A stretch of 64,000 nt of DNA from positions 1,200,666 to 1,264,665 of the forward strand of contig NW_003314316.1 of assembly GCF_000143415.4 (NCBI RefSeq), written 5' to 3'. The position numbers and the translations under genes were made by a program. Below the pieces are notes generated by a model. That model did no database searches. It saw only the letters and a program-made list of their open reading frames with translations, and was not told the DNA's origin. The DNA is from Selaginella moellendorffii (lineage: Eukaryota; Plantae; Lycopodiophyta). Below are positions 29,159-53,904 of this stretch, in pieces (positions within the stretch are counted from its first letter, which is position 1; each line of letters starts with the position of its first letter).

Positions 29159-30130
29159 ATGGAGTCTCCAAGCCATCCTGATTTCTTTGCCGAAGTCCTT
29201 GCAAAAATCCAGTCTGAGAATACCGAGTTGAAGGCGACCCTTCTTCGCATGCAACAGGAGCTTGCTTCACTTTCGGCTCAAGGATCCAGCAAAGTTCCTG
29301 AACCGAAGGTGAGTTTCCCGGCGAAATTTTCAGGCAAGCGTTCGGAGCTTCGTGGATTTTTGAACCAAATGGAGCTGATCTTTGCACTTCAACATCGGCG
29401 GTACCCCACTCCCGAGTCTCAAATCGGCGCGATTGGGACGTTGCTCGAGGGTGCAGCTTTGTCATGGTTTTCTCCTCTTCTGGAGAAGAGCATGAAAGGG
29501 GTCGTGGTTCCGGAGCTGATGGATCTTCAATTGTTCAAAGAGAAGCTCGAAGCATGTTTTGGCGAGACGGATCGGGTTCGGGCTGCTACCACAAAGATGA
29601 GACGTCTCTCTCAGGGGTCTCGTCCTACCTCGATCTACGCTGCAGAGTTCCAACTCCTTGCCTTGGACACTCAGTGGGATGAGCAGGCCCTGATTGACCA
29701 ATTTTGTTTCGGCCTCAACAACGGTGTCAAGGATTTGTTGCTCACCATGGAGGATCCCAAGGACCTGTCGGACGCCATCAACAAAGCTGTTCGATGTGAC
29801 AATCGTCTCTTTGAACGTCGTCAGGAAAGTCGCCGCGCCGCTGTTTTTCCGTCCCAGACTCAGGAATCCCAGCTTGAGTCTTCGGGGCATAGTCCTGAAC
29901 CTACTGCTCCGGTCCCGATGGATATTTCTGGTACTCCCCGACTCATTAGAGGGAAGTTGAGTCCTGCTGAGAGGCAACGTCGAATATCTCATAATCTTTG
30001 CCTCTACTGTGCTGATCCTAATCACAAAGCAGCTGTGTGTCCCAGGAAGCCTCCCCGATTGCTCGAGTTCACTCTGCCTCAAAGTCCACCTCTGTTGCAG
30101 TCGGGAAACGACCCTGTCCAAACAGAGTAG
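29159..30130 (+). CDS. gag: B2 gag
   Basis: ATG 29159; capsid-like motifs and CLYCADPNHKAAVC knuckle; TAG 30128-30130. Confidence 0.92.
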   Translation: MESPSHPDFFAEVLAKIQSENTELKATLLRMQQELASLSAQGSSKVPEPKVSFPAKFSGKRSELRGFLNQMELIFALQHRRYPTPESQIGAIGTLLEGAALSWFSPLLEKSMKGVVVPELMDLQLFKEKLEACFGETDRVRAATTKMRRLSQGSRPTSIYAAEFQLLALDTQWDEQALIDQFCFGLNNGVKDLLLTMEDPKDLSDAINKAVRCDNRLFERRQESRRAAVFPSQTQESQLESSGHSPEPTAPVPMDISGTPRLIRGKLSPAERQRRISHNLCLYCADPNHKAAVCPRKPPRLLEFTLPQSPPLLQSGNDPVQTE

Positions 30131-33100
30131 GAGTTGTCTGTTTGGACTCCCCAAATAAAAATCACTTTTCTTCCTTATCAAGCTCCTCACCACCTTTCAT
30201 CAAAGCCACCACCAATTCCCGCAACTTCCGCGTCCCATGTCTCCTTTCTTTCACCGGACAATCAGGACTCAAGGCTTTGGCGCTACTGGACTCGGGTGCA
30301 ACTTCCTGCTTCATGGACACGGACTTTGCTGCCCGACATCACGTTCCTCTTTCTCCTACCATACGGGATCTGAGGGTTGAAGGCATCGGCGGGCATTTTG
30401 TGTCTCCATCTTCTGGACTTAGGGAAACGTTGCCCGTTCGAGTACACATCGGGTCCACCGTCACCGATATCCCCTTCAACATCATCAACAGCAAGTCCTC
30501 CTCTGTGGTGCTCGGTCTTCCTTGGTTCCAACTACATCAGCCTCAGATTTGTTGGAAGGACTTACAGCTCATCTCTCCCACATCACCATCTCCCACGGCT
30601 TCCCCTGGTGTTCATCGAGTCCGAATCAGGAAAAGTTCCCTAAACTCAAGTCGGGGTTCTGTTCCTGACTCTACGAAGTTTTCATCCTCTTCTTTTTCCT
30701 CTCTTCCATCTTACATTGGACAGTATCCTCGTCTTATCATTCCATTTAGTCGTACACCTCCTCCTATCTCCACAATCACTATGAAAGAACTCCTTCATGA
30801 AGAACCTATTTTCCTTTTTGCTTTGCATGTTTTTCCTGTCAGTCTTCCTGAGAAGTATCATGATTTTGGGGATGTGTTTGACAAGAAAAAAGCTAGTGTA
30901 CTGCCTGCTCATCGGCCTTATGACTATCCCATTGATTTACAGGAAGGAGCGTCGCCTCCGTGGGGGCCTATCTACGGGTTATCCCCGTCCGAGCTTAAGG
31001 CCCTCAAAGAGTACGTGGATGAGAACCTTGCCTCGGGGTTCATTCAACATTCGCAGTCCCCGGCTAGCGCACCTGTCTTCTTTGTCAAGAAGAAGGATGG
31101 GAGTTTGCGGCTAGTCATCGATTACCGAGGTTTGAACAAGGTGACTGTTCGGAACCGTTATCCGTTGCCCCTGATCTCGGACCTGTTGGAACGCCTCGGC
31201 GGTGCCCGCTTCTTCACCAAGATTGACCTCCGTGGCGCATACAACCTGATCCGGATCCGGCCTGGTGATGAATGGAAGACTGCATTCCGAACCCACTATG
31301 GCCACTTCGAGTACACTGTCATGCCATTTGGCTTGACAAATGCTCCCGCAGTTTTCCAACACATGGCGAACGACGTCTTTCGGGAGTTTCTTGATCAGAT
31401 GGTGATCGTCTACCTCGATGACATCCTCATCTACTCAAGAACTCAGGAGGAGCACGACGAACATGTACGTAAGGTGCTGGCGAAGCTGCGAGAACACGGC
31501 CTATATGCGAAGCTTGAGAAATGTTCCTTCGATCAGCAGTCTGTGGAGTTCCTTGGGTATATTGTCACTCCTGAAGGTATCACGATGGATCCTGCCAAAG
31601 TCAAGACTATTCTCGAGTGGGAGCCTCCACAATCAATGTCGGACGTTCAGGTTTTCCTTGGCTTCGCCAACTTCTACCGCAAATTCATTGATCACTACTC
31701 TGACATTGTCCTTCCTCTCACACATCTCACTCGCAAGGATGTTCCCTTCTCTTGGTCTACTGCTGCCCAGCACACCTTCGACACACTCAAGGCAGCCTTC
31801 AGTTCTGCTCCCGTGTTGATCCATGCTGATTCCTCACAACCTTTCTTCATCGAGGTTGACGCCTCCGACTTTGCCATCGGTGCTGTGCTGTCTCAACTCG
31901 GAGCGGATCAAGAACTTCATCCGGTCGCTTTCCATTCTCGAAAATTCCAGCCTGCGGAGATCAATTACGAAATCCACGACAAGGAGCTCCTTGCCATCGT
32001 GGATTCCTTTGGAGAGTGGCGCCGTTTCTTGGAGGGGGCGGGCCATCAAACAATAGTCTGGACGGATCACAAAAATCTCGAGTACTTTGCCACTTCCCGA
32101 GTTTTGAGCCGTTGTCAAGCAAGGTGGGCACAATTCCTGAGTCGGTTTGACTTTGTTATCAAGTACAGACCTGGAAAGCTTCAAGGCCTTCCTGATGCTC
32201 TTTCAAGGCGCTCCTATCTCAGTCTCAAGTCTGGTAATCCTGCCTTCGATCAACAAGATCAAGTTATCCTCGGTCCTGATTGGCTTCAAGTTATGGCAAT
32301 TTCCCTGGCCCCTCAGGACTCCTCCTTGATGGATGCAATCAGAAACGATCTCCAATCTGATGACCTCGCCAGCGATATTTTCACCCATCTTCAGGCTGGA
32401 CACCCAGTGACTCCCGACTGCCGGCGATTTGACGAGTTCGAGTTCTTAGATGGCTTATTATACCGTGGGGAGCAGCTTTACGTTCCTGAAGGTGATGCTC
32501 GAAGGTTGGTCCTGATGGCGTGCCACGATAGCCCGACTGCTGGTCATTTCGGCATTGCGAAAACCTATGAGCTAGTTGCACGGGACTTTTGGTGGCTTCA
32601 CATGGATGACTATATCAAAGCTTTTTTTACCTCCTGTGACACTTGTGCTAGGAATAAGGTACCTCGCCACCTTCCTTCAGGTTTGCTTCGTTCCCTCCTG
32701 GTCCCTTCAGGTCCTTGGGAATCCATCTCCATGGATTTCTTGAGTGATCTTCCGAGTTCTGGAGGCTTCAACAGTATTTTAATCGTGGTGGATCGCTTCA
32801 CAAAGATGGTGCACTTCTTGCCGTGTACCAAGGAATTTTCGGGCGAGGACATGGCAAAATTGGTATTCAGGGAAATTTTCCGACTTCATGGGATTCCTAC
32901 AGATGTGGTTTTGGATCGGGGGCCTCAGTTCATCTCTCATTTCTGGCAACGGTTTTTGCAGCTGCTTGGAGTGAAGGCCAACCTCTCTTCGGCATATCAT
33001 CCTCAAACTGATGGGCAGTCCGAGCGAACGATTCAGACGCTGGAACAATTCTTGAGGTGCTTCATCAACTATCATCAGGATAATTGGTTCGATATCCTTC

Positions 33101-33876
33101 CCCTTGCTGAGTTCTCCTATAACAACTCTGTTCACTCCTCTCTTCGAGTTTCCCCCTTCTTTGCGAACTCTTGCCAAAATCCCCGATTCAATCTCTCACT
33201 TCCTTCTCCATCTGAATCCCCTCGTTCAAATCCTCGCTCTGAGGCATTTATCTCCAACCTTCAGGAAATCCACAACTCCATCTCCTTCCACCTCCATCAT
33301 GCTCAGGAATCTCACAAAACATTTGCCAATGTCCATCGTCAGGATTGTCCCCCTTACAATATCGGGGATAAAGTCTGGCTCCTCAGGCGAAATATCTCCA
33401 CCACCAAGCCCTGTCCAAAACTCGATTTCAAACGCCTTGGTCCTTTTCCTATCACTGCCATCATTAATCCCGTCACTTATCGCCTTGCACTTCCCTCCTC
33501 ATATCAAATTCACCCCGTTTTTCACTCCTCTCTCCTTGAGCCTTATATTCCCAGTCCTATTCCAAATCGGGTCATTCCTCCGCCTCCACCAGTGCAGCTC
33601 GAGGATGGGTCTGAGTACGAGGTTCAGGACATCCTTGATTCCAAGATTTCACGGTCTAAACTCTACTATCTGGTCGACTGGAAGGGTTACGGATCTGAGG
33701 AACGCACTTGGGAACCTGCGGATAACCTGATTCATTCTCCTGACCTTGTTCAGGACTTCCACCGCCGCTATCCTTCTCGTCCCAGTCCTCATTCTTTTTC
33801 TCCATCTCCCATCCCTCGCCGCTCATCTCATCCTCCTCTTCGTTCTCGTTCACATCCTCGTTCCACTCGTTCTTGA
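30103..33876 (+). CDS. pol: B2 pol (PR-RT-RNaseH-INT-chromodomain), -1 frame relative to gag
   Basis: LLDSGA, YLDDILIYS, DASDFAIG, HHCC, integrase D,D35E core, EYEVQDILDSK...YLVDWKGY...TWEP; no internal stops (ORF 30037-33876). Confidence 0.93.
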   Translation, partial: GKRPCPNRVGVVCLDSPNKNHFSSLSSSSPPFIKATTNSRNFRVPCLLSFTGQSGLKALALLDSGATSCFMDTDFAARHHVPLSPTIRDLRVEGIGGHFVSPSSGLRETLPVRVHIGSTVTDIPFNIINSKSSSVVLGLPWFQLHQPQICWKDLQLISPTSPSPTASPGVHRVRIRKSSLNSSRGSVPDSTKFSSSSFSSLPSYIGQYPRLIIPFSRTPPPISTITMKELLHEEPIFLFALHVFPVSLPEKYHDFGDVFDKKKASVLPAHRPYDYPIDLQEGASPPWGPIYGLSPSELKALKEYVDENLASGFIQHSQSPASAPVFFVKKKDGSLRLVIDYRGLNKVTVRNRYPLPLISDLLERLGGARFFTKIDLRGAYNLIRIRPGDEWKTAFRTHYGHFEYTVMPFGLTNAPAVFQHMANDVFREFLDQMVIVYLDDILIYSRTQEEHDEHVRKVLAKLREHGLYAKLEKCSFDQQSVEFLGYIVTPEGITMDPAKVKTILEWEPPQSMSDVQVFLGFANFYRKFIDHYSDIVLPLTHLTRKDVPFSWSTAAQHTFDTLKAAFSSAPVLIHADSSQPFFIEVDASDFAIGAVLSQLGADQELHPVAFHSRKFQPAEINYEIHDKELLAIVDSFGEWRRFLEGAGHQTIVWTDHKNLEYFATSRVLSRCQARWAQFLSRFDFVIKYRPGKLQGLPDALSRRSYLSLKSGNPAFDQQDQVILGPDWLQVMAISLAPQDSSLMDAIRNDLQSDDLASDIFTHLQAGHPVTPDCRRFDEFEFLDGLLYRGEQLYVPEGDARRLVLMACHDSPTAGHFGIAKTYELVARDFWWLHMDDYIKAFFTSCDTCARNKVPRHLPSGLLRSLLVPSGPWESISMDFLSDLPSSGGFNSILIVVDRFTKMVHFLPCTKEFSGEDMAKLVFREIFRLHGIPTDVVLDRGPQFISHFWQRFLQLLGVKANLSSAYHPQTDGQSERTIQTLEQFLRCFINYHQDNWFDILPLAEFSYNNSVHSSLRVSPFFANSCQNPRFNLSLPSPSESPRSNPRSEAFISNLQEIHNSISFHLHHAQESHKTFANVHRQDCPPYNIGDKVWLLRRNISTTKPCPKLDFKRLGPFPITAIINPVTYRLALPSSYQIHPVFHSSLLEPYIPSPIPNRVIPPPPPVQLEDGSEYEVQDILDSKISRSKLYYLVDWKGYGSEERTWEPADNLIHSPDLVQDFHRRYPSRPSPHSFSPSPIPRRSSHPPLRSRSHPRSTRS

Positions 33877-36800
33877 GGAGGGGGTGCTGTCAGGAATCCC
33901 CCAATTCTTGCCACATTCCTGACTCTCGCCGGATTCCTGACCTACAGACCACATTCCTGACTCTCGAGACACTTCCCGATTCCTGAGTCTCGAGCCACAT
34001 TCTTGATGATGATGTGGCGCCTCCTCGACCTCAGCTGTCTTTAGGCCGTCCTCGATCCAAGAGTGGTGGAGCTTCATCAACCTATAGTATATATAGGTTA
34101 GCCTTGTTCCATTTCTCCACAATCTGAATCAACACCAGTCTAAGGCTTCTTCTTTGTTTCCACTAGCTTTTCTCTTTGTCTTTAGCATTTTCTAGTCTTG
34201 ATCTTGTTGGGGGTCTTGACAGTGCTATCCAATGAGATTGGGAAACTAGTCTCATTGCATATGCAGAGATGAAAACGATAATCCGAGTGGGTACACGTTT
34301 TGGTGCAAAGGCTTCGCAATCGTTCCTTGGGTATGGATTTTGGTTCCTTTTTGTACCATAATAATGTGAGCTTGCTCTTGGGCTCATAGGATGGATTGAG
34401 TTGTTCCGTTGCACGAGTTTTCACTTAGGCTCGTGAGTGTATTAGCAACTCAAGGTTACACTTTGAGTTGGTAGGATTAATGTTAGCCTACTAGTGGTTC
34501 CATGAGTTGCTCCTTGTACCATAGGTGAAAGTAAACTTTCCCTGGGTTTGCTATGAGTGGCAAATAGGCTGGTCCGTAACTGTTTAACACGGCACTAGTG
34601 GATCCTTCTTAGGCATGATTATAAGTGGATCAATCAAGACTATAGGGATTAATCTATTGGTTCAAGTAATCATGGCCATGCTCTTTCATAAACTTTTCTT
34701 GGATTGAATTGAAGGCAATGTGAAAGCAAGCTTGAGGTTTAGTCAAAGATGAGACCGAAAAGAGAGTCGTCAGGGATGAAGGATTAAACACGTAAATCAT
34801 TTTCTCTTCTCGGAGAGATGATTTGCAATGGTGTGACTCATTGCTCGTATTCACAATATGCAATCAAGAGTCCCTACCTTGATGCATGTTGGAAATGATG
34901 GTCTTGCAAGTGGTGAGTCATGGGATGGATAGCGGTGAAACGCTAAACCATTTTGTCTAGGCTTCCTATTAGAAGACTTGGGTTGCAATGCTTAATTCTT
35001 TTCCGGAAAACCTTGTTATTACTCCTTGAGTAGCTTGGTGTTGGATTAGTTTTGAGTTTGGTCAGAAAGAAAGTGGCATGAGTTTGTCCGTGTTGTGAAC
35101 AAAAGTTAGTGGTGTTAGGTGTTGTAAATCTCTATTGGTGGGATGTGGCATTTATGTTGCATTTTGTTGAATCGAGTTGGCATTTGATATTCACATAAAC
35201 TTTTGAAGTAATGACATTGGCAATGCTTGTGGTGTTGCTTAATTGATGGTCAAGACACTATGATTTTTATATTATATCCATGTGATAATGAGTAATGTGT
35301 TGGCAAAGTTGCTTGTTTAAACGATGATCAACCCCAAAGTGGTTGATGGTGAGGCTAGTCTACTTGCACGAAGTAGCATTGTAGTAGCTTTAACTGGATT
35401 CTCAATGGTGGTCCATTATACTAAGCTTAAGTTGGTTCTTTAGTTCCTTGAGTTGCCCATTAAGGTGTTAGAAAAGGGTTGTAACATTCATTTGCTATGG
35501 CTTGTTCGTTTATCTGTTAGCACTTGGAGTAAATTGTTGGATGGAGAAGGTGTGTAGTTAAGGCATTAACATCGTTAGCACTTGTGTTAGTGGAAGTGGC
35601 ATTGTTGATTCGAGTGATAAGGAATTTTCCTTAAACCTTGAATTTTCATATCATTTTTCTTGTTAGTGTTTGGGCTTCACATCAGATCTTGAAGGTAGTT
35701 GAAGAAGAGTGTTAGTGCAATATGGATATCTGAAGATATGGTCTTCATGATCAAGCCTTAAATGTTCATTTTGCATTTTGCGGATTTGGATGTTGGAAAA
35801 ATGGGCAAAGATGTTCGATGCTTAAGCATGCTATTGGGTCATGAGAATTTTTGTTGAGGTGAACCTATGTGAAGTTGTTAGTAAAAGGAATTTGATTGAG
35901 TCTTGAAAGTTTGCATTCCTGGACTGAGAGTCATTCTTTCTTTAGGATGGAAAATTTTCCACAAATTTTCTTAGGCTTTTCCAATGGCTGATCTGTTGAT
36001 CACTTTGTCCGCAAACCATTCCATTTTCGTAAGCCAATATAAACTAGTGAAGGGGTTGGAGTTGACTTTGGTTGGCTTAAACCTTAGTCGGTAGTTTGTA
36101 TGATGTGGCTCGAAAGGGATGCTAACTTTAGGGCTAAGGTAATTGAGTTGGATAGAGTCTAGAGTTGGTGTAGAAAAGTGGCCGTTGCACTTTTCTAAGA
36201 AGGGTGACCCTTGTGCCTTTTTTCTGTAGCGTTATGTTTGGTGGCAGGTTGCACTTTGCATTTTGATAAGACTCCATGAGAGTAGTGAGCTCTCACTGAT
36301 CTTGATTTAGTCTTAGTGGCCCTGTGCTTTGGCTGAGGATAGTGATGTCCAACTTAGTTGTTCGAGGTTAAGATGTTGGTACCTATACTATAGCTTTGTC
36401 TATGAGGAGGTTGTGTACCTATATGAGTTCATTTCATGGTCTTCACTTTAGTTTCGACTAAGTGTTGATCGTGCATAGCTAGCCTCTTCAAGGCATGCTC
36501 AAAGCTAGTGGCTAAATGCATTAGTGAGCTTATTGCAGTTGAGTTAGATTCGAGTAGTCATTTAGTTCATGCTTGTCCATGAACCTTTATCTTGTACTTG
36601 AGATATTACATTCATGTTGGATGAGTATATGACTTAATGACGTGAGTTTAATGTTTGGGTCTTATGAAGGCAAGTTAAAAGGTGATTGTTGGTTGTTTTG
36701 CGACTAGTGATTACTTGTAAACTTTGTCAAGGACTTTTGACACTTGCTTCACTCGATGAAAATTTATCAGAGATGGGTTTACTTTATTGGATGATGTTGT

Positions 36801-37191: not shown

Positions 37192-37696
37192 TGTAAGCCA
37201 CAATTTCCTTTCCAATTTGCCAGCTTACCTCGTCTATCCGTCCAACACTCCCTTGGCTTTTGCTAAGTTCCCTTACCAAAGTTCTCGCCTATGGTACCAG
37301 CTCCTACTTGGTCTCAGCTACTCACTGCACAAGCAACAGAGGGTTAGCCATCCATCCACGGATTCCCAAATCACCCCCAATCCCCCTCCCCGGGTTAGAC
37401 TGGACTTAAGGTTCGGCTACACTCCCCGCAAGCACAAGCAACCAAGCACACCAAGCTTCCAAGTTCCTAACATCCCTTGGTACCACAAGACTTGATCATG
37501 GGACCCTCTAAATCCCAAGTCTTGAGTGCAACACTTGCTTCGGGATGCCGGGGCAAAACACCGTGGCCTAGCGGCCCGGTATGGGTACCTCTACCCCCCA
37601 CTTCCATCCCGAAGGAAGGCCCAAGCCCCTAGGCAGGGCGAGGACCAATGAGTACCATGCGACCAATGAGCCGCATGGTACTCAAGTGGGGCACCA
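37192..37696 (-). mobile_element. Partial family C LTR
   Basis: Closely matches 38878-39369, from TGTAAGCCAC to GGGGCACCA. Confidence 0.85.
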
Positions 37697-37698
37697 AA

Positions 37699-38008
37699 TG
37701 TAAGCTCCTGAATTTGGACTTCCCGGGAGGTCACCCAGCCCAGTACTATTCAATCCCAAGGACGCTTAACCCCAAGTATCCCAAGACCCTTAACCGATTG
37801 AAAAAGGGGGTGCACTTTTATTCATGGGCCCTTTCCCTCTATATTTGAACCCCTATGGATCGTCTCTCGAATCGTTCTCTTTGGTTGCTTACAATCTACC
37901 ATGCTTTCCTGCAAGTTCACGCCCTCGTGAACGGAAGCTGAGAGCCGCAGCTCTCCCGAGAGCCTCGCTCTCTTGACACCCTACCCCTCGGGTCAAGCCC
38001 AGCAGGAG
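37699..38008 (-). mobile_element. Cassandra LTR (37699-37893, best-preserved 5S segment 37716-37770) plus part of the interior
   Basis: Reverse complement GTTAAGCGTCCTTGGGATTGAATAGTACTGGGCTGGGTGACCTCCCGGGAAGTCC resembles the plant 5S A-box/IE/C-box; interior matches 13964-14078. Confidence 0.88.
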
Positions 38009-39661
38009 TCAAGAACACTGCCAAGGAAACAACTCTAGAAAAAGTTTATGGTATTCACACTTTGTGAGAAATGCACCAACTTAATTAAGTTAGGGTAACC
38101 TCTTTATCTAATGCGGATGCGCTACCAACTCATACACCTTTCAACCGTCACTGATAAGGAAATAACCTGGATTGTTTATTCAATAAAAATTATACATCTC
38201 TCTATTGATAAAATAATTGATGATTTTTTATAATAGTTAGTTGTTCTCTTTAATGGTTTATGGTTTTTCACATTATCATATATTCTTTGTGGTTTGCTCT
38301 AGATTAATCTTTTGGGTTTGAGCTTGTTGGTTGATGATACTTGTGTTTTTTGAGTTGTCTTTGGTAAATTGTTTAGCATGCTATCTACAATCTTTGGTAG
38401 TTAAGTTTTATCATTGAGTTTCTTGATGATTTACTTGCTATTGAATTTTGTTAGATGGTTAATTCTATGACCTTAACCTTGATCTTGGTGGTTCTTATAC
38501 TATAATACTAGTTTATTGGATGATAACTTACTTGGAATACTTTTGTGTTCTATTTTAAGATTTATTCACTGATAATTAAGTTTCCAAGATATCATTTTTT
38601 CTAACTTTGATATTGTCCATATATTGATCTTTAAGTTTGGGCCATAGGCAAATTGGCTTCGGCACTTTGTGTGCATAGTGAAATGTTTAGTCATTGGGTA
38701 GTTACTTTCGACTGGTCACTTCACCTGCCTTTCTGTTGATGTTCCCTATTTCATTTAAAAAAGGGCATAACCGTATAAATAACTCTAACTATCTATTTAT
38801 TTTAGTCTATCTAAACCTTACCGATGAGTTTGGTTTCTTTACTTATGAGAGTTGGGGATAACAGAGTTAGCCACTTGTGTAAGCCACAAATTTTTCCTTT
38901 CCAATTTGCCAGCTTACTTCGTCTATCCGTTCAACACTGCCTTGGCTTTTGCTAAGTTCCCTCGCCAAGGTTCTCGCTTATGTTACTAGCTCCTACTTGG
39001 TTCTACTTGGTTTCAGCTACTCACTACACGAGCAACGGAGGGTTAACCATCCATCCACGGATTCCCAAATCTCTCCCAATCCCCCTCCCCGAGTTAGACT
39101 GGACTTAAGGTTTGGCTACACTCCCCGCAAGCACAAGCATCCAAGCACACCAAGCTTCCAGATTCCTAACATCCCTTGGTACCACAAGACTTGATCATGG
39201 GACCCTCTAAATCCCAAGTCTTGGGTGCAACACTTGCTTTGGGACGCCGAGGCGAAACACCGTGGCCTAGCGACCCGATATGGGTACCTCTATCCATCCC
39301 AAAGGGAAGGTCCAAGCCCCTAGGAAGGGCGAGGACCAATGAGCCGCATGGTACTCAAGTGGGGCACCACTCCACATGAGCCGGGAGCACTGCAGTCGGT
39401 TTCCCTTTCGGGAGTGGGAGCTGCTCTTGAGCACTTTCTTGGATGGCCCCTCCAGCACCAACCAAGTCCATGCTCACTCCCACCCAAGGCCCCTCGGTCC
39501 CAATCTCAACCTCAAGTCAGTTTGGAAGCCCCATTGGAGAGTTCCTTCAAAACTGGATCCTAGACCTCACTATCTCTACTATACTTTTGGAACCCGCTGC
39601 AGCCCCTCCCCCCCTTTGGGAGACACATGCTTTGGGCTTTCACCCCTTGACCCGTATTAGT

Positions 39662-39930
39662 ACTCGGACTCGGTCTTGGACTTGATCTCGGACTCAATCT
39701 CGGACCCGACTTTGGACTCGGTCTCGGACTCGATCTCGGACTCGATCTCGGACCCGATCTCGAACACGACTTCGGACTCGACCTCGGACTCGGTTTCGGA
39801 CCTGATTTGGATCTCGGACTCTGTCTCGAACTCGGTCTCGAACTCGGTCTTCGATTCGGCCTCGGACTCGATCCTAGACTCTATCTCGAACTCGGTCTCA
39901 AAGTCGGTCTTGGACTCGATCTTTGACTTG
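39662..39930. repeat. Degenerate 6/12-bp minisatellite (CTCGGA/CTCGAT/CTCGGT) in LTR-C
   Basis: GGACTCGATCTC-type units. Confidence 0.9.
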
Positions 39931-40449
39931 GTCCCATCCGATGAACTCTTTGTCATTTTGGTCATGCCTTTGGGGATCCTTTAGCATATGACATCTCGGC
40001 GAGTTGGTTCCTTACAATTCCACCACCCATAGAAGAAGTTCGATGCCCACATCGAACGTCTCTCTTTTTGATCCTACGACTTGTTGACTATGTCTCCGGG
40101 GGCATCCCCCCACTTAGCGGTGTGCCTAAGTTAGCCTCCTTGGCCAAGAGCCCATGACAACGGAATATAGGTGTCCCTATACTCCTCACCTCACCACGCC
40201 CTAGTATGGGGTCGGGACTTGAACCCAACCTTGCTTTACTAGGGGGTTGGGACTCGAACCCAACCTCCGTAGAATACGTTTACGGATTTGACATCCCCGC
40301 AGGGAGTTGGGCGTAGTTCCCTACGCCTGGTCGACCTAATTAACCCATGCTAATTAGCTTACCTTTAGCGCGCCTTCGGGTCCCAACATATGCCATTGCT
40401 CAACTTCACCAATTGATACTTTTAATTGAACTTTGCATAAGTACATAGA

Positions 40450-43400
40450 GTTCTACCTTGCAGAAATTCCTCCACTAGGTCTCACGCGTTCGCTAGGTTC
40501 TCCTCCGGTTCCCACATTGCTTCGTAGTGTGGAAATCCTTTCCACTTCACATGGAACTGTCTCACTTCGTGTCCTTGTCACTTGCTCCTGCACGCATTGA
40601 GGATGGCCTCGACTTCGTATTCCTCTTCCCCTTGGATAACCTCAAGTAAAGGCCTTACTTGGTCCTTGCAAAGCGGATCCTCAAAGTACAGCTTGAGTAA
40701 GTTCACGTGGAACACGGGGTGCATTTTCCCCATCTCTCGAGGAAGTCGGAGATAGTAAGCCACTTTACCGATTCGTGCCTCAATCTCATAAGGCCCCGTG
40801 AACTTGCTTAAGGAACTCAAGATCAATTCATTTATGGAATACATGCATTTTTACCTTTGGGTCAACTTCCAACTGATCCCACTTGGTAATCTGAGGTTCT
40901 TGGTGTTCAGCCACACCTTCTCCCCAGCTTGGAACTCTACATCCCGACGCTTCTGGTTCGCATATTTGGTTTGCCTTTGTTGAGCTCGTTCCAAGGAATC
41001 CCTCACTAGATTCCAAATGTTGAGTCTTTCCACTGTGAATGCCTCCACTGCAGGTAACTCTCCATGATACTCGGCCATGCCGAGCTCCACAGGACCTTCA
41101 ATAGCTCGCCCATTGATGACTTCCCATGGACTCACCCCGATACTCGAATGTGGTGAGTTGTTATAACACATTTCCGCAAGTCCTAAATGATTTACCCAAT
41201 CGGTCTGGTCTCCCGAGACATAGCATCGCAAATAATCCTCCAGCTGTCTATTCACCCTTTTCGTTTGTCCGTCTGTCAAGAAGTGTTAGTGCCATCAAAC
41301 TTGACTTAATACCCCATACTTGTCTGTGGGTGATAGGCTGTGTTGAATTTCAACTTGGTGCGCTACTGTTCCAAAAGAGTTCTCTAGAACCTACTGGTGA
41401 AGATCTTATCTTGATCTGAGATAATCTCTTCTGGCCTCCCCCGCACTCGAACTACTTGTTCGAAGAACAGCTTTGCCACACCTTCCGCATCCACTTCTGT
41501 TGTGGTGGGTATGAATTGTGCCATCTTCGAAAATCGGTCCACCACCACGAATATCGCATCAAACCCCTCGCTTGGGGGTAGTCCCGTGATGAAGTCCATC
41601 GTAAGACATTTCCACGGACGATCTGGAATTGGGATGCTTTGCAACAAGCCCCCACTAGCCTTAATCACAGCTTTGACCTGCTGACATGTTGGACATATCT
41701 TTACATAATCTTGGATGTCCTTAGCCATATCTGGCCAATGATACTTCCTCTTGAGTAAGCCTATCGTTTTGGGCACTCCGCCGTGTCTCGCAAGAGGTCC
41801 ATTATGACACTCCTCTAAGGCTACATTCCTTAGTTCCCCTTCTAGGACATACACCCTCATTTGCTTGTAATAGATGAGTTCATTGCGTTCCGCATAGCCC
41901 ATTTTCTCTTCCATTGGCAGCTCACCTCTCTGGTGAGCTTCCCGTGCCTCCAGATTCCACAGCAACACTTCTTGTGCTAGACCATCGTTCTCATATACTG
42001 TCCACACATCATCCCAAAATGTTGCTGTTGCACTGGATATTGCCAACTTCGGGCTCGCTTTTTGACTTAGCGCATCTGCCACGATGTTGCTCTCCCTAGG
42101 CTTATACAGAATCTCGCAATCAAACTCGGCCAAAGCATTGGTCCACCGACCTTGTTTCCCCCTCAGGCCGGGTTATGACAAGAAGTGTTTCGTTGCCACA
42201 TTGTCCATATAAACTTTGAAGTGTCTCCCAAGGTAGTGTCTCCACTCCTTGAGTGCCTTGACCACCGCAAACAATTCCTTCTCATGGGCAGGCCACTTCC
42301 GCTGAGCCTTGTCGAACTTTTTCAAGAAGAACGCTACTGGATGGTTGTTCTGCTTCAACACTGCGCCTAACGCAAAGTCCGAAGCATCCGTTTCTACCTC
42401 AAAGTCCTTACCAAAATCTGGTAACGCCAACACTGGAGCTTTCCTCAATATCCCTTTGAGGTGGACAAATGCCGCCTCACACTTCACTATCCATACCATC
42501 TTCCCTTTTCCCGTTTGGTCTGTTAAGGTAGGGCTACTCTCGAATAGTGTCTGATAAACTTTCGATAGTAGTTGCATAGCCCCAAGAATGCCCTTAACTC
42601 GTGTACATTCGATGGTCGCTCCCAATCCTGGATCACTTGGACTTTCTCAGGGTCCACTTTGAGCCCGTCCTTGCCCACCACATGCCCGAGAAACTTTACC
42701 TCTTGTTGAGCAAAGTCACATTTGCTCTCTTTAGCATACAACTGGTGTTCCCTTAGTTTCTCAAACACCTTCTTTAAGTGTTTGGCATGCTCCTCTAGCG
42801 TTTCGCTATAGATCAGGATGTCGTCAATATAGACGACCACAAAATGATCCAAATAGAGTACAAAGATATGGTTCATCAATGCCGAAAACGTTGCCGGCGC
42901 ATTGCATAGCCCGAAGGGCATCACCAGAAACTCGAAGCTCCCATACCTTGTTCGATAGGTTGTCTTCTCGACATCTTCCTCTGATACCCTGATCTGGTAG
43001 TATCCTGACCTTAGGTCAATCCTTGAAAAGTATTTTGCCTTTCCCAACCTATCGAATAGGTCCTCAATCCTTGGCAAAGGGTACTTGTTCTTCTTTGTAT
43101 ACTTGTTGAGCAATCAGTAGTCTATGCACATGCGCATAGATCCATCTTTCTTTTTCTCAAATAGCACTAGTGCCCCATACGGCGACTTGCTCAACCTAAC
43201 ATACCCTTTTTCCACCAACTCCTCTAGTTGGCACTTGAGCTCCGCGAGTTCTTTTTCGTTCAAACGATAGGGGGGACGAACCACCGCCTCAGCACCCTTG
43301 ACCAACTCAATCTTATGTTCTATCGGTCGTGCGGGGGGCAACCCCGCCGGTAGCTCCTCCGGCATGGTATCCCGGAATTGGTCCAACACCTGCTGGATCA

Positions 43401-45060
43401 CTAAAGGTACTTCTTCCGTTCCTGTCTTTTTGTCACTCCTCACTGAGAGTAAGCACAAAAATGCAACCTTGGTCCCTTTAGTGAGTTGTCCTCTCGTGGA
43501 CACCCGGTTTAAGCACGAATCTTTGGCCTTGCATTGCCCTACCTTTAGATCCTGGGCTTCCACCCTGGATCTTCTTCCTTGGGCATTCGCTAGTACCACA
43601 AGGTTCTTACCTTGTCCATGCAGGGTTACCATGAACCGATTGAACCAATCCATCCCGAAGATCACGTCAAATTCTGCCATGTCCAACACAGTGAAATCCA
43701 TGTCCACTTTCCAAGTCCCTACTTTGACTCTCGCTTGTCGAAGTACCTCATCAGTGCTTTGGCTACCTTGAACAAAATCTATAGTCCTTGGTTCACTTAG
43801 CCACTACACCGTTAGTTTGGCTTGCCGGACTATGTCTACAACCACAAAATTATCCGAAGCACCCGTGTCAATAAGGATCTTAATAAAGCTACCTCCGAGC
43901 TTCCCTCGGAGGGCTAGTAGATGTCGCGAACGACTCTCTACCAAAGTTGCTCGTATAATGAGTAACTTTGAGCTAGGGATTGGATCACATACCTCAGTTT
44001 GGACTTCACCTGATTTAATAGCCATATTAGCTCTGGCCTTCTTTAGGTAGGGACATTCCCTCGAAAAGTGTCCTGCTTCACCGCAGTTATAGCATACGTT
44101 ATTTCCCACGCTGCTAAACAACTTGACCTTTTTATCCGTGGGTTTGTCTCTTTTTGCTTGACTCCCCCATGTACTTGCTCGCTGGCCACCAGATTTGCCT
44201 TTCCGGAACCCCGAGGATTCATTTTTAGAGAAACTCTTCTTGAATTTCCCTTTGCTATAAGTTCCCCTTGGTTTGGCCCCTTTGCTAAACGTGGACCCCG
44301 ACCCCGTCGTGTTTCCCTTTTGCAAGTTATCGTTGAAATGCACCTTGATAGCCGCATCCAATGCTTCTTTGTAATTGGTCGGGTTCCAACGCATCACCTT
44401 GCCGCGAGCCCAGGTTTGCAAGCCCGCTATGAAGGCATGGAACGCATCCATATCCCCCATGTCCATGACAAGTATCCTCTTTGCCATAAACCCATTCATA
44501 TACTCCTGAATGGTTCCGGTCTGCTTCAGCCTACTCAGCTCATCTCTTAGATGCAGAGTAGCATTTGGAGGAACGTAAGTCGCGTGGATCCTCGCTTTCA
44601 TCATGTCCCAAGTGGCCACTGGTCCTTCGTTGGCCTCCATTATTCTCCACCAAGACTTGGCATTATCTACCAAGTATGGTTTTGCACATGGGACCTTCTC
44701 CAAGCTCGGTAACCGCAACGTTCGGAAGTAATCTTTCATATCGTAAAACCAATCTTCCACCACCTTATAGTCATTCACTCCCTTGAAGACCAGTGGGGGC
44801 TTTGGTTTATACTTGGGAACAGCTTGAGGGACTGATTCCACTTCGGTCTATTCGACCTTGTTTGGTTCTGCCTCAGTCCCTACTGAAGGGTCCGCACCTT
44901 CTGCACTGCCAACATCCGTAGTCTTTCGCTTTTTCTTCCGCTTCTCGTCATGCTTTAGTTTGCGTAAGAGAGTCTCCAGCAAGGCATTGGTCTATGCCAA
45001 CTGTCCTTCTAGAACGTCCAATCGAGCCTTAAACAACCGAACCTCGCCACCAGATTCCTG
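40450..45060 (-). pseudogene. Family C gag-pol
   Basis: Fragmented ORFs 43804-44841, 43114-43707, 42523-43113, 42173-42625, 41384-42133, 40851-41279 and 40578-40844. Confidence 0.88.
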
Positions 45061-45353
45061 TTTTCGGGAGCACTACAGTCGGTTTCCCTTTCGGGAGTGG
45101 GAGCTGCTCTTGAGCACTTTCTTGGATGGCCCCTCCGGCACCAACCAAGTCCATGCTCACTCCCACCCAAGGCCCCTCGGTCCCAGTCTCAACCTCAAGT
45201 TAGTTTGGAAGCCCCACTGGAGAGTTCCTTCAAAACTGGATCCTGGACCTCACTATCCCTACTATACTTTTGGAACCCCCTGCAGCCCCCCCCCCCCCCC
45301 CCCCCCTTTGGGAGACACACGCTTTGGGCTTTCACCCCTTGACCCGTATAAGT

Positions 45354-45645
45354 ACTCGGACTCAGTCTCGGACTCGATTTCAAACTCGATCTTGGACCCG
45401 ACTTTGGACTCGGTCTCGGACTCGATCTCGGACTCGATCTCGGACCCGATCTCGGACCCGATCTCGGACTCGACTTCGGACTCGACCTCAGACTCGGTCT
45501 CGGACCCGATTTGGATCTCGGACTCTGTCTTGAACTCGGTCTTGAACTCGGTCTCGAACTCGGTCTCCGATTCGGCCTCGGACTCGATCCCGGACTCTAT
45601 CTCAAACTCGGTCTCAGAGTCGGTCTTGGACTCGATCTTCGACTT
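45354..45645. repeat. Same minisatellite in the other C LTR, with more units
   Basis: As 39662-39930. Confidence 0.9.
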
Positions 45646-48600
45646 GGTCCCATCCGATGAACTCTTTGTTATTTTGGTCATGCCTTCGGGGATCCTTTAG
45701 CCTACGACACCTCGGCGAGTTGGTTCCTTACACTACTTTAGATGTCACCCAACTTACAAAAGTGTGTTATACCCATGTCTGTAGGGACATAGAGAGCCAT
45801 CCCAAAGAATGGCAAATCCTTCACCACCACCAGCAATCAAATAAAAATCTTAATGAGAATAATCAACTATCCCAATATAATAATCATTCATTGTCAATGA
45901 TTGCTATATGCAAATACTAACTTCAATATCGAAGCTAATGAGCCAAAAATGCTTTCCTTAACAACTTCTAACAAATAGAATAATGAGTATAAAATTCAAA
46001 GAACCAAAAGTTTGAAGAAGCCTATAGCCAAGTCTTGTTTAACAATGATCACGAGTCTCACATGAACTAACTTTAATATTAAAGAAAAAATCATGGTACA
46101 ACCCACAATATTCTTAGCATATCCAAAAGCCAAACTTTATAATGCAAAAGCTAATGAAAAGCATTTCTGCATCAATCTAAAAGCCAAGCACAACAAAGCT
46201 ATGCTCAACAAGTAACCATCAAACTAATCCTCCATGAATTCATCTTTTATAGTAAGATGTAACTCACTTCATAACAAGCATAAAAAAAATCACCAATGAT
46301 CGATATATCCCAACTCAAAGCCAACAAGGATTTAAACATGCCAATGTCAATCATTAACTTTTCCTCTTGTAAAGCTAACTTGCCACTCAATTCATTTGAA
46401 CGTCAATACAGTTGCTAACTAGCTAACGTACAAATGCTAATAACACAAAGCTATAGCCCAAGTATCAACACTATTTGCATTGAGACTAATGTAACTCAAT
46501 AGCAATACTATGGAGAGACATTTTGTTCTACTCAAATCCCAATATCAATAATATCAATGACAAAGAATCACTTTAATGCTATCAACACCATAACAAAGTT
46601 ACTAGAAAGCAAGAGTGAATCACCACTGAAAGCTTTTTAGCAACCAATCAAACTTTACTTAGTATTTGAAACTAACTCTTCAACAAATCTTAGTTACAAG
46701 TAACACATTATCAAGGAGTGATTCACCACATCTAAGACTCAATAAAATCCAACACCATAGACTAAACACAACTAAATTATATCGACAGAGGTAGAATTAA
46801 TATGCCATCATGGGAAAAACTATGTAAGCCTATGATACGATCCTCTGCAACACGATCTGGTAAAGCAAGCTTATCACTACTAAATCATCATCGAGTGAAG
46901 TAAGTATTAAAAGTCCTCGACAAAGTGTACAAGCAATCACTAGTTGCAATATGATCCTTTACAACACCATTTGATAAAGTAAACCTATCACTGCTAAATC
47001 ATCATCGAATAAAGCAAGTGTTAACAGTCCTCAATAAAGTCTATAAGTAATCATTAATTGCAAACCAATTAATAATCACTCTTTCAACTTGCCTTTATAA
47101 GACCTAAACACTAATCTTATATCATCAAGTCATATATTTGTCCAACATGATCATAATACCCCAAGTACAAGATAAAGGTTCATAGACAAACACAAACTAA
47201 ATGACCACTTAAATTTAATCGAATTGCAATAAGCTCACCAACACGTATAGCTAATAGTTTTGAACATGCCTTGAAAAGGTTAGTTATGCATGATCACACT
47301 TAGTTGAAACTAAAGTGAAGACTATGAGATAGACTCATTTTGGTACACAACCTCCTCATAAACAAAGCTATAGTACAGATATTAATATTTCAACCTCAAA
47401 CAACTAAGTTGGACATCACTATACTCAACCAAGGTGCAAGACTACCAAGACTAAGCTAGAATTATTGAGAGCTCACTACTTTCATAGAATTTAACAAAAT
47501 ACAAAGTGCAACCTACCACCAAACACAATGCTAAAGAAGAAAGGTATAAGGGTCGCCTTTCTTAGAAAAGCACAATGGCCACTTTCCTACACTAACTTCA
47601 AATTCTATCTAACTCAATTGGTTTAGGCCCAAAAGTCAACATCCCTTTTGGGCCACATAATACAAACTACCTACTAAAATTTAAGCCAACCAAAGTTAAC
47701 TTTAACCCTTTCACAAATTTGTAATGGCCTTTGAAAATAGAGTGGTTTTCAAACAAAATAATCAACAAATTAGCCATTGAAAAAGTTTAAGAAAATTTTG
47801 TGAAAATTTTTCTATCCTAGAAAAAGAATGACTCTTAGTCTAAGAATACAAACTTTCAAAACTTAATCAACTTCCTCCTACTAACAACTTCACATAGATT
47901 CATCTCAACACCAATTCTCATGATGTAATAATATGCTTAAGTATCAAATATCTTACCCATATTTTTTACATCTAACACTAACATCCGTAAAATGCAAATT
48001 GAATATCTAATATTTGATTACAAAGACCATATTTTCAGATATTTATACACTCTTCTTCAATCACCTTTAAGATCTAATGTGAAGCCAAAACAATAACAAA
48101 AAAAATAACATGAAAAATCAAGATCTAAGGAAAATTCCTTATCACTCGAAACTATAATACCACTTCCACTAACACAAATGTTAGCAATATCAATGCCTTA
48201 ATTATACACTTTCTCCATCCAATAGTTTACTCCAAATGTTAACAAATAAACCAACAAGCCATAACAAATGAATACTACAACTTTTTCCATCACCTTATGG
48301 GTAAACCCTCAAGGAAATAAGGTACCAACTTAAACTTAACATAATAGATCACTATTGAGAATCCAATCAAAGCTATTACAATGTTATTATGTGCAAGTAG
48401 ATTAGCTTCACTATCAACCACTTTGGGATTGATCATCGTTTAACCAAGCAATTTTGTAAACACACTATTCACTATCATATGGATATGATATAAGTATCAC
48501 AATGACTTAATCATCAATTGAGCAACACCACGAGCAACGCCCATGTCACTATTACAAAAATTTACGTGAGTATCATATGCTAACTCTATTTGACAAAATA

Positions 48601-50839
48601 TAATATAAATGCCACACCCCACTAATAGAGATTTACAACACTGAATACCACCAATTTTGTTCATAATATAGACAAGTACATGCCACTCTTTTTTACTAAA
48701 CTCAAAACTAATCCAATACCAAGCTACTCAAAGAGCAATAGCAAGGTTCTCTATAAATAATTGAGCATTGTAACCCAAATCTTCAATAGCAAGCCTAGAC
48801 AAAATGGTTTAGCACTTTACGGCTATCCATCCCATAATTCACCATTTGTAAAACCATCATTTCCAATATGCATCAAGGTAGGGACTTTTGATTGCATGAT
48901 GTGAATACAAATAATGAGTCAAACCTTGCTATAAATTGTCTCTCCAAGAAGAGAAAATGATTTACGTGTCTAATCCTTCATCCTTGATGACTCTCTTTTC
49001 GATCTCATCTTTCACCAAATCTTAAACTTACATTCGTATTGCCTTCAGTCCAATCCCAGAAAAGTTTATGAGAGAACGCGGCAATGACTACTTGAACCAA
49101 TAGACTAATCTTTACAGTCTTAATTGATCCACTTTTAATCATGTCTAAGAAGGATCTACTAGTGCCGTGCTAAACAGTTATGGACTAGCTTATTTGCCAC
49201 TCATAGTAAACTCAAGGGAAGTTTATTTTTACCCATGGTATATGGTTCAACTTATGGTAATGACTAATAGGTTAACATTAATCCTGCCAACTTAAAGTAT
49301 AACTTTGAGTTGCTAATGTGCCTCACTTATGAGCCCAAGGGCAAATTCGTGCAAAATGGTACACCTCAAATCCATCTTGTCAACTCAAAATATAACCTTG
49401 AGTTGCTAATATCCCTCACTCATGAGCCCAAGCACAAATTCGTGCAATTAGAACATCTCATTCCATCTTATAAGCCCAAGAGCAAGCTCACATAATATGG
49501 GATAAAAAGGTAACTAAATCCATACCTAAAGAATAAATACAAAGCCTTAGCACCCAAATGTGTATTTACTCGGATCATCATTTTCATCTCTACATATGCA
49601 ATGAGACTAGTTGCCCAATCTCTACTCACTGAGACTCACTCTCTGATACCAAATGTAATGCATGTGGTTTTCACCCTTTATCCTATGGATAGGATAACGA
49701 CAAAGAAGAACCTAAACCCTTCATATGCTATGTGTCACATGCCACATGTCCCAAGGATAGCAGAGTGGAACCCAAGTTTTAGGGCTTTGGGCTACCGAAC
49801 AAATGAACGAAGGAATGTAGCTAAACTCCTAAGCATGGAGCCAAGGAACAAAGGTATTAAAGAATGGAGCAACTCCTGAGCGTACAACCCAAGGAGCAAA
49901 GGGACAAGAGCATGGAACAACTTGGAATAATCCTAGAGCATCTAACATCCCAATGCTATAACCAACACACAAAATGGAGCCAAATAAAGTTTGGCGCTAT
50001 TTTCGTATACTAGTGGCTTAACGTGAGGATAAGTACTCCACCAGCTAGCATGGTGTGGAACTTGGGATTAGACCCAAGCCAGACACAGAACAAGGATAGG
50101 TATGCAAGTGGGAGCTAAATTATGCCTCAGGTTAGTCAGCCATACCTAACCTACCCACCATCCCTATTATACATTTGAAATCCCCCATAACCCCCTGCCC
50201 CCTCTCGAGGAACACATGCTTTAGGCTTTCACCCGTAGCCACCCTTAGTACTAGGAGTTAGTCTTTAGCACAACTAGAAACTTACTAAATATGGAATGTC
50301 CCTAGATTGTGAATTTAGACACGGGACGAACACCATTGTGTCAGGATAATCTCTACATTCCATAAATATGCCAAATTAGCAAATCTAAATACCTTCCATA
50401 AATAGCATTTAGGACTGAAATGAGACTAACACAAAGGGCATGATAGTAAAGGTGTTTGGCAAACACAGTAAACTATCATCCAACAATATTGAGGGACTAA
50501 TTCCAATACGTGAGGGTTATTATTAAGCCAGTGCAAGATAAAGCAAAAGAGAACTAAAAGCAAGGCTGAGTATGCTCAACAAGAAATACATAGGAGTTCC
50601 TACCTTATGTTCATTTGGCTAAGTATAGGTGCTAAGCTTAGTTTACTAACACTTGAACAAGAGGGACTGATAAAGCATTTAGCAATACTAATTGTTGTAG
50701 TAAGGAAAGAGTATCTGAAAAGACTAGCCGACAAGCAACTTTTGATATCTGAAACTACATTCACAACACTAAAATTGTTCTAACATCACTTTATACTTCC
50801 GTTCCTTACCTTTTTAAGTTGTATGGTTGGGAGTTACTT

Positions 50840-53384: not shown

Positions 53385-53871
53385 TTAAAAGTATCATTGA
53401 TATATCAACCTCTCACTTATGCCATGTTTATTCTTGTTGTCCTATAAGTAGTCTAAAACCACTCATACTATAGATTTGTTTTGATATGGGGTAACATTAT
53501 TCTCCAATATGCCTTCTTTGATCCTCACTAAATCTTTCACTCTAGCTTTTGGACTCTTTAATGCTTATATTATCACCCACCATCATGACACTTACTATAT
53601 ATTAGTCAAGCTCTTGAATTTGGACGTCCTGGGAGGTCACCCAACCCAGTACTATTCAAACCCAAGGACGCTTAACCTCAAATATCTCAAGACCCTTAAC
53701 CGATTAAAAAAGGGGGTGCACTCTTGTTTAATGGATGTTTAATCCACTCATGTAATGGATGGTTTAATTTTAGAAACTAAATCTATAGTATGAGTGGTTT
53801 TGGACTACTTATAAGACAATAAAAATAAACATGGCATAAGCAAGAGGTTGATATATTAATGATACCTTTAA
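53385..53871. repeat. Foldback/MITE-like element with ~95-bp inverted arms enclosing a Cassandra 5S LTR fragment (~53607-53722)
   Basis: Arm ~53385-53478 is the imperfect reverse complement of ~53779-53871. Confidence 0.7.
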
Positions 53872-53904
53872 GTATTTAAAATAAAACTTGGACACATAGA
53901 GTAT

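Follow-up and report, generated by a model that had tools for sequence, protein, structure and literature searches.

Few small retrotransposons of vascular plants are as widely distributed as Cassandra elements. They are TRIMs whose short LTRs contain a 5S A box and, after a spacing of 18 nt, a C box; they have an iMet PBS, a PPT, no ORF and a 5-bp target duplication, and the published table holds 81 of them, 3 from ferns, 78 from angiosperms and none from lycophytes (PMC7215508, PMC10853983). Their autonomous partner is stated to be unknown in PMC7215508, and PMC10886601 states that there is no indication of the family that mobilizes it, in line with the remark in an earlier note on this DNA that Cassandra helpers are not firmly identified.

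The only resemblance between retrozymes and their Ty3/Gypsy helpers lies in short boxes at the PBS, at the PPT and at the LTR ends; retrozymes differ from the element described here in their hammerhead ribozymes and 4-bp duplications, and in the main text of that report the helper is named only as Ty3/Gypsy, with no mention of Galadriel (PMC4918200). Helenus and Ajax (TRIMp3) are TRIMs with Pol III promoters in their LTRs, for which helpers were deduced from the PBS and the type of target duplication; they differ from our element in that Helenus is tRNA-derived, with one family known in Selaginella moellendorffii, and Ajax is a 5S capture in animals (PMC10886601). Two Galahad families, SM1-Galahad and SM2-Galahad, have also been described in S. 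moellendorffii (PMC3350952).

The window analyzed here is a stretch of 64,000 nucleotides from the lycophyte S. moellendorffii (contig NW_003314316.1, positions 1,200,666 to 1,264,665), and its features are listed in Table 1. It contains a Cassandra TRIM, as had been proposed from the sequence, in the form of one full copy and one partial copy; no lycophyte Cassandra was found in print in the open-access full-text literature. The full copy has two short LTRs, a short non-coding interior with no ORF of 150 aa, a total length of <1 kb, a tRNA-Met PBS, a PPT and a flanking 5-bp target duplication (GTATG on the + strand), in agreement with the definition of Cassandra. Its two LTRs differ by K2P 0.174±0.037. 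The LTR of the partial copy (37893-37699, minus strand) reads TGTAAGCAACCAA...GAGCTTACA, and the internal part of this copy is truncated upstream at the start of family-B internal sequence. The iMet PBS is decayed in the window Cassandra and intact in other Cassandra copies and in RNA reads.

Table 1. Cassandra and family C features of the window (positions are those of the window)
Feature	Position	Strand	Remarks
Complete Cassandra TRIM	13785-14343	minus	559 nt; nested in family-B LTR (12962-14711)
Complete Cassandra, 5' LTR	14343-14169	minus	
Complete Cassandra, internal region	14168-13964	minus	decayed iMet PBS, hairpin, PPT
Complete Cassandra, 3' LTR	13963-13785	minus	
Distal half of second C LTR	37192-37696	minus	ends GGCTTACA; inserted in family-B internal DNA
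Cassandra-LTR/C-LTR fusion	37693-37698	minus	TT + TGGT (start of Cassandra PBS)
Partial Cassandra copy	37699-38008	minus	
Cassandra LTR	37699-37893	minus	195 nt; 5S-derived A box and C box near 3' end
Cassandra LTR, 5S A box	about 37771-37760	minus	box definition per PMC7215508
Cassandra LTR, 5S C box	about 37741-37729	minus	box definition per PMC7215508
Cassandra internal region, 3' part	37894-38008	minus	hairpin 37915-37932 and PPT; 86% to full copy
C 3' LTR	38878-40016	minus	1139 nt; 12-nt tandem repeats, G-rich tract
C PPT and hairpin	40017-40057	minus	PPT GGGTGGTGGAAT; hairpin 40038-40057
Broken C gag-PR-RT-RH-INT-chromodomain region	40464-44847	minus	Pfam
C chromodomain	about 40619-40464	minus	aromatic-cage type
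C 5' LTR	45065-45732	minus	only the proximal 668 nt kept; PBS and distal LTR part lost by deletion
Third Cassandra LTR fragment	53608-53728	minus	both 5S boxes present

The A box is followed by an 18-nt spacer and the C box, with one mismatch per box relative to the published pattern. Rfam gives a partial match to 5S RNA (33.7 bits, E 0.004, short of the gathering score of 38), and at the gathering threshold it returned zero matches across the window. An LTR of about 195 nt and an internal region of 205 nt are close to the dimensions of fern Cassandras (187-208 and 190-193, respectively), and the 5S part lies at the 3' end of the LTR near the PBS, as it does in ferns; the hairpin core (ACG-AGGR-CGT) and the PPT/LTR junction (GGTGGAT/TGTAA) match those of angiosperm Cassandras, apple among them (PMC7215508, PMC10853983). 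Besides the single off-pattern position in each box, the window element differs from published Cassandras in a tandem-duplicated A-box region and a T-interrupted PPT.

Judged by its sequence, family C belongs to the Galadriel clade of chromoviruses and is similar to SM1-Galahad, and the description "Galadriel-like" in the earlier note agrees with both its tree placement and the published account of SM1-Galahad. It has the Ty3/Gypsy order PR-RT-RH-INT with a C-terminal chromodomain (Pfam). In a 35-row quick tree of RT-RH-INT, built without named Reina or CRM rows, the REXdb set or bootstrap, C and protein P0243 grouped with six seed-plant Galadriel-type proteins (a label given by visual comparison with named integrases and with the Beon1 PPT) with an SH-aLRT of 97, and separately from Tekay-type proteins and family A; the RT-only tree gave the same grouping at 86. 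C resembles SM1-/SM2-Galahad in a length of about 7.4-7.5 kb, LTRs of >1 kb with a poly-G tract, a tRNA-Met PBS, the order CCHC-PR-RT-RH-INT, a type I chromodomain, high copy number and many deleted copies, the likeness being to the published description rather than to the sequences (PMC3350952). The PBS of C is of the tRNA-Met type and not self-priming like that of Tcn1. A library-wide integrase search returned distant matches only (30-52% identity). Scans of viral contigs yielded neither Cassandra nor any relative of P0243 or the C RT, the single motif match in those scans (L001) being a chance match. The dirigent-like protein of the window had zero homologues at E 1e-8.

The earlier note gave the span 37192 to 45732. 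Within it, family C occupies 38878-45732, and 37192-37696 turned out to come from a second C LTR, of which the distal half is present, 93.7% identical to the segment 38878-39369 of the C 3' LTR and fused to the Cassandra LTR. The C 3' LTR (40016-38878, minus strand) reads TGTAAGGAACCAA...GGCTTACA and has the terminal inverted repeat TGTAAG/CTTACA; its full length holds across the family, with loose contig ends at 37696 and 38878. The distal part of the 5' LTR and the PBS are missing, because the remaining 668 nt run directly into gag. In other C copies the LTR is followed by an iMet PBS, as read from 64 contigs with loose ends at 38878 (agreement 0.49, the flanks being mixed in), and a non-iMet PBS did not appear among them. 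The two LTRs of the window copy differ by K2P 0.056±0.010, its coding region is interrupted by 10 stop codons, counted in all three frames used, and by two or more frame changes, and its flanks are rearranged such that the length of the C target duplication (4 or 5 bp in the Galadriel clade) is not readable there. The window copy of C is dead and cannot itself be a helper.

Cassandra and C are alike where an LTR meets the interior. Their first LTR bases are identical at 12 of 13 positions, compared to 8 of 13 for family A and 5 of 13 for family B, and both LTRs end in GCTTACA, so that the near-identity of termini reported earlier stands, and the two other LTR families of the window do not have these ends. 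The binomial chance of the match at the LTR start is 8e-5 given TGT and 8e-4 given TGTAA, beyond which 7 of 8 bases agree. The PPT junctions are likewise as similar as had been claimed: GCGTGGTGGAT adjoins 13963 and GCATGGTAGAT adjoins 37893 in Cassandra, and GGGTGGTGGAAT adjoins 40016 in C. The PPTs of Cassandra and C are T-interrupted (GTGGTGG), whereas families A and B have G-runs, and the interrupted form is absent from all 22 beet chromovirus PPTs in PMC3605345 (supplement 1). Global alignment of the 60-nt junctions of Cassandra and C gave scores of 14 and 12, against a mean of about -4 for shuffled C; of 2000 shuffles, 0 and 2 scored as high. In the same test the scores were reached by 155-225 of 2000 shuffles for family A and by 75-81 for family B. 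Beyond the junction, four tests detected no similarity between Cassandra and C, none of them better than 45 of 300 shuffles; the similarity of family B to C in the promoter region of the LTR served as the positive control. For lack of similarity outside the junction, we reject Cassandra as a deletion derivative of C.

A hairpin precedes the PPT in both elements, as the earlier note had seen, although the Cassandra hairpin had been placed one base off (Table 1 gives the corrected position; that of C was right) and the loops had been given for the + strand. On the element strand the loops are AGGG in Cassandra and TGGG in C, and they lie 28 nt and 29 nt from the LTR, respectively; family B has its own hairpin 27 nt before the LTR, and the distance is 24-26 nt in those 13 of the 18 tabulated metagenome loci in which a script detected the AGGR hairpin. 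The outer stem GTTC/GAAC is common to Cassandra and C and occurs in none of these 18 loci. The earlier note had pointed to compensatory changes in the two hairpins. We reject the hairpin as evidence for a link between these two families in particular, because it also precedes the PPT in Galadriel, non-5S TRIM and many other Gypsy-type and non-autonomous loci. In a motif scan of at least 117 loci, about four fifths of which look like chance matches or stayed unclassified, seven of the eight plant-type loci with an integrase directly upstream best match the Galadriel-type group and one the Tekay-type group, the search pattern being biased toward this outcome. Seven metagenome loci may be retrozyme-like; Rfam found no hammerhead in the 12 such loci given to it, and no 5S in the three Cassandra-type loci from outside the window.

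The earlier note proposed that family C mobilizes Cassandra in trans. The shared PBS type, PPT and LTR ends partly support that proposal; the dead window copy, the generic hairpin and an ancient junction core weaken it. Retrozymes and their Gypsy helpers have likewise been reported to be similar at the PBS, at the PPT and at the LTR ends only (PMC4918200), which favors the helper reading; in these features Cassandra is closer to C than to the two other window families and 18 outside loci, the helper comparison within the window having covered three LTR families (A, B and C). We put the probability that the helper is C or a close sister family at about 0.55. C specifically is plausible but unproven; that the helper is some Galadriel-clade family is better supported, and we regard it as quite probable.

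According to the preferred reading, Cassandra is a gene-less LTR retrotransposon that probably relies, for its copying and insertion in trans, on proteins encoded by C or by a closely related sister family with the same ends. Its RNA would be made from its own 5S-type Pol III promoter and packaged by the Gag of the helper, with tRNA-iMet as the likely primer; the helper RNase H would cut at the GTGGTGG-type PPT, and the helper integrase would process the TGTAAG...CTTACA ends and produce the 5-bp duplication. Since the window copy of C is dead, this role would have fallen to other members of the C family. The conserved core of the signals probably goes back to an ancient partnership of Cassandra and Galadriel, and the local extra matches would track the helper of the host genome.

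It is unlikely, though it deserves serious weight, that the helper is a different Galadriel-clade family and that Cassandra resembles C through ancestral chromovirus ends retained by descent or from past dependence. The GGTGGAT/TGTAA junction occurs in apple Cassandra, and part of the match is therefore ancient; because this core is found in apple and a PPT ending in GGTGGAT in 8 of the 81 published Cassandras, the local features come down to about eight additional bases of the LTR and the outer stem of the hairpin, and the junction may have been inherited rather than copied from C. The spacers also differ by one base on each side (AAT and ATT in C, AT and TT in Cassandra), and ATT is the spacer of apple Cassandra as well. 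Several related families coexist in this genome, as indicated by the promoter-region sequence and separate hairpin of family B. Two Galahad families are described in S. moellendorffii (PMC3350952), and the age of the full Cassandra is about threefold that of the window copy of C (K2P 0.17 compared to 0.056, from one copy each). Against this explanation, the ends of the related family B are different (TGTTGCG...CTACA), so that Galahad-type ends are not uniform, and neither the GTTC/GAAC stem nor the 7/8 match that follows TGTAA was seen in anything compared other than C.

Less probable still, and in our view rather improbable, is that the shared motifs are generic LTR-retrotransposon signals combined with chance, and that the helper is unrelated or that there are several, any iMet-primed Gypsy or Copia family being suitable. 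In most lineages an iMet PBS and duplications of 5 bp are more common than any other state (REXdb table), the module of hairpin and PPT occurs in many elements, and published Cassandra PPTs vary widely; furthermore, a genome contains some tens of families, so that a 7/8 match at 8e-4 each is not negligible. Nonetheless, it is one and the same family that four separate features point to, all in fixed register, and the hairpin module was found upstream of Gypsy-type and not Copia-type elements, in a comparison set of Gypsy proteins only. Very improbable is a separate origin of the 5S TRIM, by capture of a 5S fragment in a C-dependent TRIM (C being the helper but uninformative on true Cassandra), for which Ajax of ribbon worms (PMC10886601) is a precedent and the partial 5S match an argument, but to which the fern-like dimensions and 5S position (PMC7215508) and the angiosperm-type hairpin core and junction are opposed.

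At the fusion point the Cassandra LTR meets the middle part of a C LTR, with TGGT as a 4-nt overlap. This fusion was bridged by none of the 24 longest pieces listed among 3882 from three DNA runs, in a search whose filter drops records and for samples from which the window allele is possibly absent. The fusion appears to have arisen once; neither an amplified chimeric family nor a proof of co-packaging is supported, and a deletion in the rearranged nest accounts for it equally as well as co-packaging.

From the sequence alone a lycophyte host was likely, and the best PPR identities, at 37%, had not suggested S. moellendorffii itself. A lycophyte host, if true, moves the origin of Cassandra well before the split of ferns and angiosperms. 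A broader reading is tentative, and we would give it somewhat less than an even chance: Cassandra would have been a parasite of the Galadriel clade from a time when the lycophyte lineage had not yet separated from that of ferns and seed plants (about 400 million years, compared to the published 250), and would keep only the ~60-nt plus-strand/integration junction and the LTR tips of its helper, updated to the local helper, with C as the helper here and the Galadriel subgroup with the polyprotein end TRTS..GGGGL (Camellia P0079) as the flowering-plant counterpart. A named candidate lineage makes the question of the partner directly comparative: the ends of Cassandra should co-vary with those of Galadriel across plants, and the two should co-occur in particle or linear-DNA libraries.

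Cassandra and C are both very abundant in the same DNA runs. The C internal region, abundant in DNA, is near zero in two RNA runs (about 12% of each read). Stranded RNA reads run from the Cassandra LTR through the PBS into the interior, likely on the element strand (27 in X22 and 44 in X23). Run X4 (organism B), not counted as an independent species, contains near-identical sequence at low depth.

The window is plant DNA and holds a dense nest of LTR elements plus a few genes, with coordinates collected in the table. The LTR of Cassandra, a gene-less TRIM, has 5S-type A and C boxes with an 18-nt spacing close to its 3' end, and Rfam gives a partial 5S match (33.7 bits, E 0.004). The A-box region is tandemly duplicated at 37760-37795, with A-like motifs 24 nt apart, and each LTR of the full copy lacks about one A-box unit, through different deletions. 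Coverage of Cassandra in public DNA runs is very deep, and other copies in public sequencing runs have an intact iMet primer binding site (PBS).

Features of the window, in window positions
Feature	Position	Strand	Remark
PPR protein gene	6562-8397	+	
Gene, presumably for a p24-like cargo receptor	11000-11782	minus	
Dirigent-like protein gene	11927-12523	+	
Family B	12962-14711, 27510-28672, 45797-50771, 53902-60277		
Complete Cassandra, 559 nt	13785-14343	minus	GTATG target duplication; sits inside family-B LTR
Family A copy, chromovirus	16826-22355	minus	young
ORF with a motif we take to be bulb-lectin-like	23609-24571		no Pfam match
N gap	25857-26407		
Family A copy, chromovirus	28677-34221	+	young
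Second Cassandra LTR and 115 nt of interior	37699-38008	minus	
Family C element	45732-38878	minus	
Third Cassandra fragment	53608-53728		

Family C, the candidate autonomous helper, has recognizable Gag, protease, RT, RNase H, integrase, and chromodomain regions and a 3' LTR of 1139 nt; the distal part of its 5' LTR and the PBS are gone. The window's copy is dead, its coding regions being broken by 10 stops and two or more frame changes. In contigs of other C copies the full LTR is followed by an iMet PBS, as the earlier note expected of a helper. That note's Galadriel-like label also holds: in a 35-row RT-RH-INT tree, its rows hand-picked from the long proteins retrieved (seven planned rows fell under the length cut-off), C pairs with P0243, an unnamed protein (support 94); the pair falls in a clade (support 97) that includes Galadriel-type proteins of seed plants and is separate from Tekay-type rows and family A. 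The name Galadriel is based on by-eye comparison to named integrases and the Beon1 PPT (PMC3605345, supplements 1 and 2). The description of SM1-Galahad fits C in size, poly-G LTR of >1 kb, PBS, and chromodomain type.

The two family A copies have LTR pairs that are ~99% identical and 5-bp duplications (GGTCA and GTGCT). No tRNA PBS was found in them, and the first 15 nt downstream of the 5' LTR can pair with LTR position 258, the arrangement predicted for Tcn1-type self-priming. Passages of PMC6317226 and PMC3350952 describe self-priming Tcn1-type and type I chromodomain Galadriel-type families together in Selaginella, the combination seen here. This element set makes a stronger case than the PPR gene for a host that is probably a Selaginella, though one other than S. 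moellendorffii; a fern with a small genome is less probable. Of 120 hits for the PPR protein, 21 bear the name S. moellendorffii and two Adiantum, but no identity exceeds 37%, and a Ginkgo protein has the top BLAST score. Family B, with LTRs of ~1.16 kb that have a promoter-region block in common with C, has an iMet PBS and a hairpin and PPT at 55049-55098; its AT-rich interior of several kb matched none of the Gypsy proteins retrieved, and the family is probably a large non-autonomous element related to Galahad.

At the LTR start, 12 of 13 bases are the same in Cassandra and C, and the final 7 bases of the LTR are identical; both have a PPT interrupted by T and a hairpin whose outer stem is GTTC/GAAC, at a near-equal distance from the LTR. 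Their 60-nt junction score was matched by 0/2000 and 2/2000 shuffles, compared to 155-225/2000 for family A and 75-81/2000 for family B. No alignment was found beyond these signals, and we therefore rejected an origin of Cassandra by deletion from C.

In retrotransposition, as outlined in the introduction of PMC10886601, a tRNA primes at the PBS, the PPT resists RNase H, and integrase acts on the LTR tips. Cassandra would be transcribed by Pol III, its RNA packaged by C-family Gag, and its copying and insertion carried out by C-family RT, RNase H, and integrase. We consider C or a close sister the probable helper, at odds slightly better than even (about 0.55). The shared LTR tips, PPT, and PBS type favor the help in trans by C proposed earlier, whereas the dead copy in the window and the age of the junction core weigh against it. 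Retrozymes were tied to Gypsy helpers by evidence of the same kind, according to passages of PMC4918200. The proposed Cassandra-C pairing is the novel and testable part: passages of PMC7215508 and PMC10886601 call Cassandra's autonomous partner unknown, and those of a paper naming both Cassandra and Galadriel draw no link between them.

That another Galadriel-clade family is the helper is the foremost alternative, though an unlikely one. The junction core is old, since apple Cassandra has GGTGGAT followed by TGTAAC at its junction and an ACG-AGGA-CGT hairpin (part of the PMC7215508 supplement) and 8/81 published Cassandra PPTs end in GGTGGAT (PMC10853983, supplement table 2A). The local features are a 7/8 match between Cassandra and C in the bases after TGTAA (chance 8e-4 per family), the outer stem, a missing G-run, and a longer hairpin spacing (27-29 in this genome versus 24-26 outside). 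A Camellia Galadriel-type polyprotein ends TRTSASSGGGGLL; read from protein rather than DNA, this ending is consistent with the junction of angiosperm Cassandra and offers a lead for flowering plants. In some Cassandra-type elements (L016, a motif-scan locus, and a Vaccinium row in PMC10853983 table 2A) the canonical Galadriel PPT end GGGGAGAA replaces GGTGGAT, as might be expected if they had changed from one Galadriel subgroup to another.

Generic motifs are a still less probable source of the likeness. A motif scan of metagenome contigs, with a pattern biased toward Galadriel and Cassandra, gave at least 117 loci, which we sorted by our own reading. Among those listed, seven have an upstream integrase matching the Galadriel-type group and five more have Galadriel-type gag or pol pieces; one is Tekay-type and one other Gypsy. 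Both 5S boxes occur in two and a C-box-like stretch in one, two are TRIMs without 5S, seven are short elements with the PBS 82-85 nt upstream, and the majority of the remainder look like chance matches. This range indicates that the combination of hairpin and PPT is widespread in Gypsy elements, being present in family B as well, and the hairpin loses the standing of a C-Cassandra family mark that it had been given. Independent 5S capture is very improbable, sizes here being close to those of the three fern Cassandras among 81 published elements (PMC10853983, supplement table 2A). Those 81 include no lycophyte. Passages of Gao 2016 report TRIMs in S. moellendorffii and 5S sequence in Cassandra families only.

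At 37693-37698 the Cassandra LTR, with the first PBS bases after it, runs into the middle part of a C LTR, TGGT forming the overlap. Template switching inside a particle shared by both elements could have produced this fusion, but the nest around it also contains an inverted block and several deletions. None of the contigs listed from three DNA runs bridges the joint, which we regard as a one-time event of uncertain origin. The C LTR breakpoints of the 5' LTR deletion and of the fusion are independent and lie no more than ~12 nt apart in LTR coordinates (window positions 39370-39382 and 45065). Compared with the copy at 55332-56220, a family-B interior block at 38168-38877 is displaced and in reverse orientation, and so the nest around C has either undergone more than one rearrangement or been misassembled.

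LTR divergence, from one copy each, is 0.174±0.037 for the full Cassandra, 0.056±0.010 for C, and 0.011 for family A. The C interior is abundant in DNA, with nearly no RNA reads in two runs. Stranded RNA reads run across the Cassandra LTR, PBS, and interior, and many further reads come from transcripts containing just part of the LTR. At least two transcripts hold the 5S-box part alone (37713-37770) between unrelated flanks and may be host transcripts in which a fragment is embedded.
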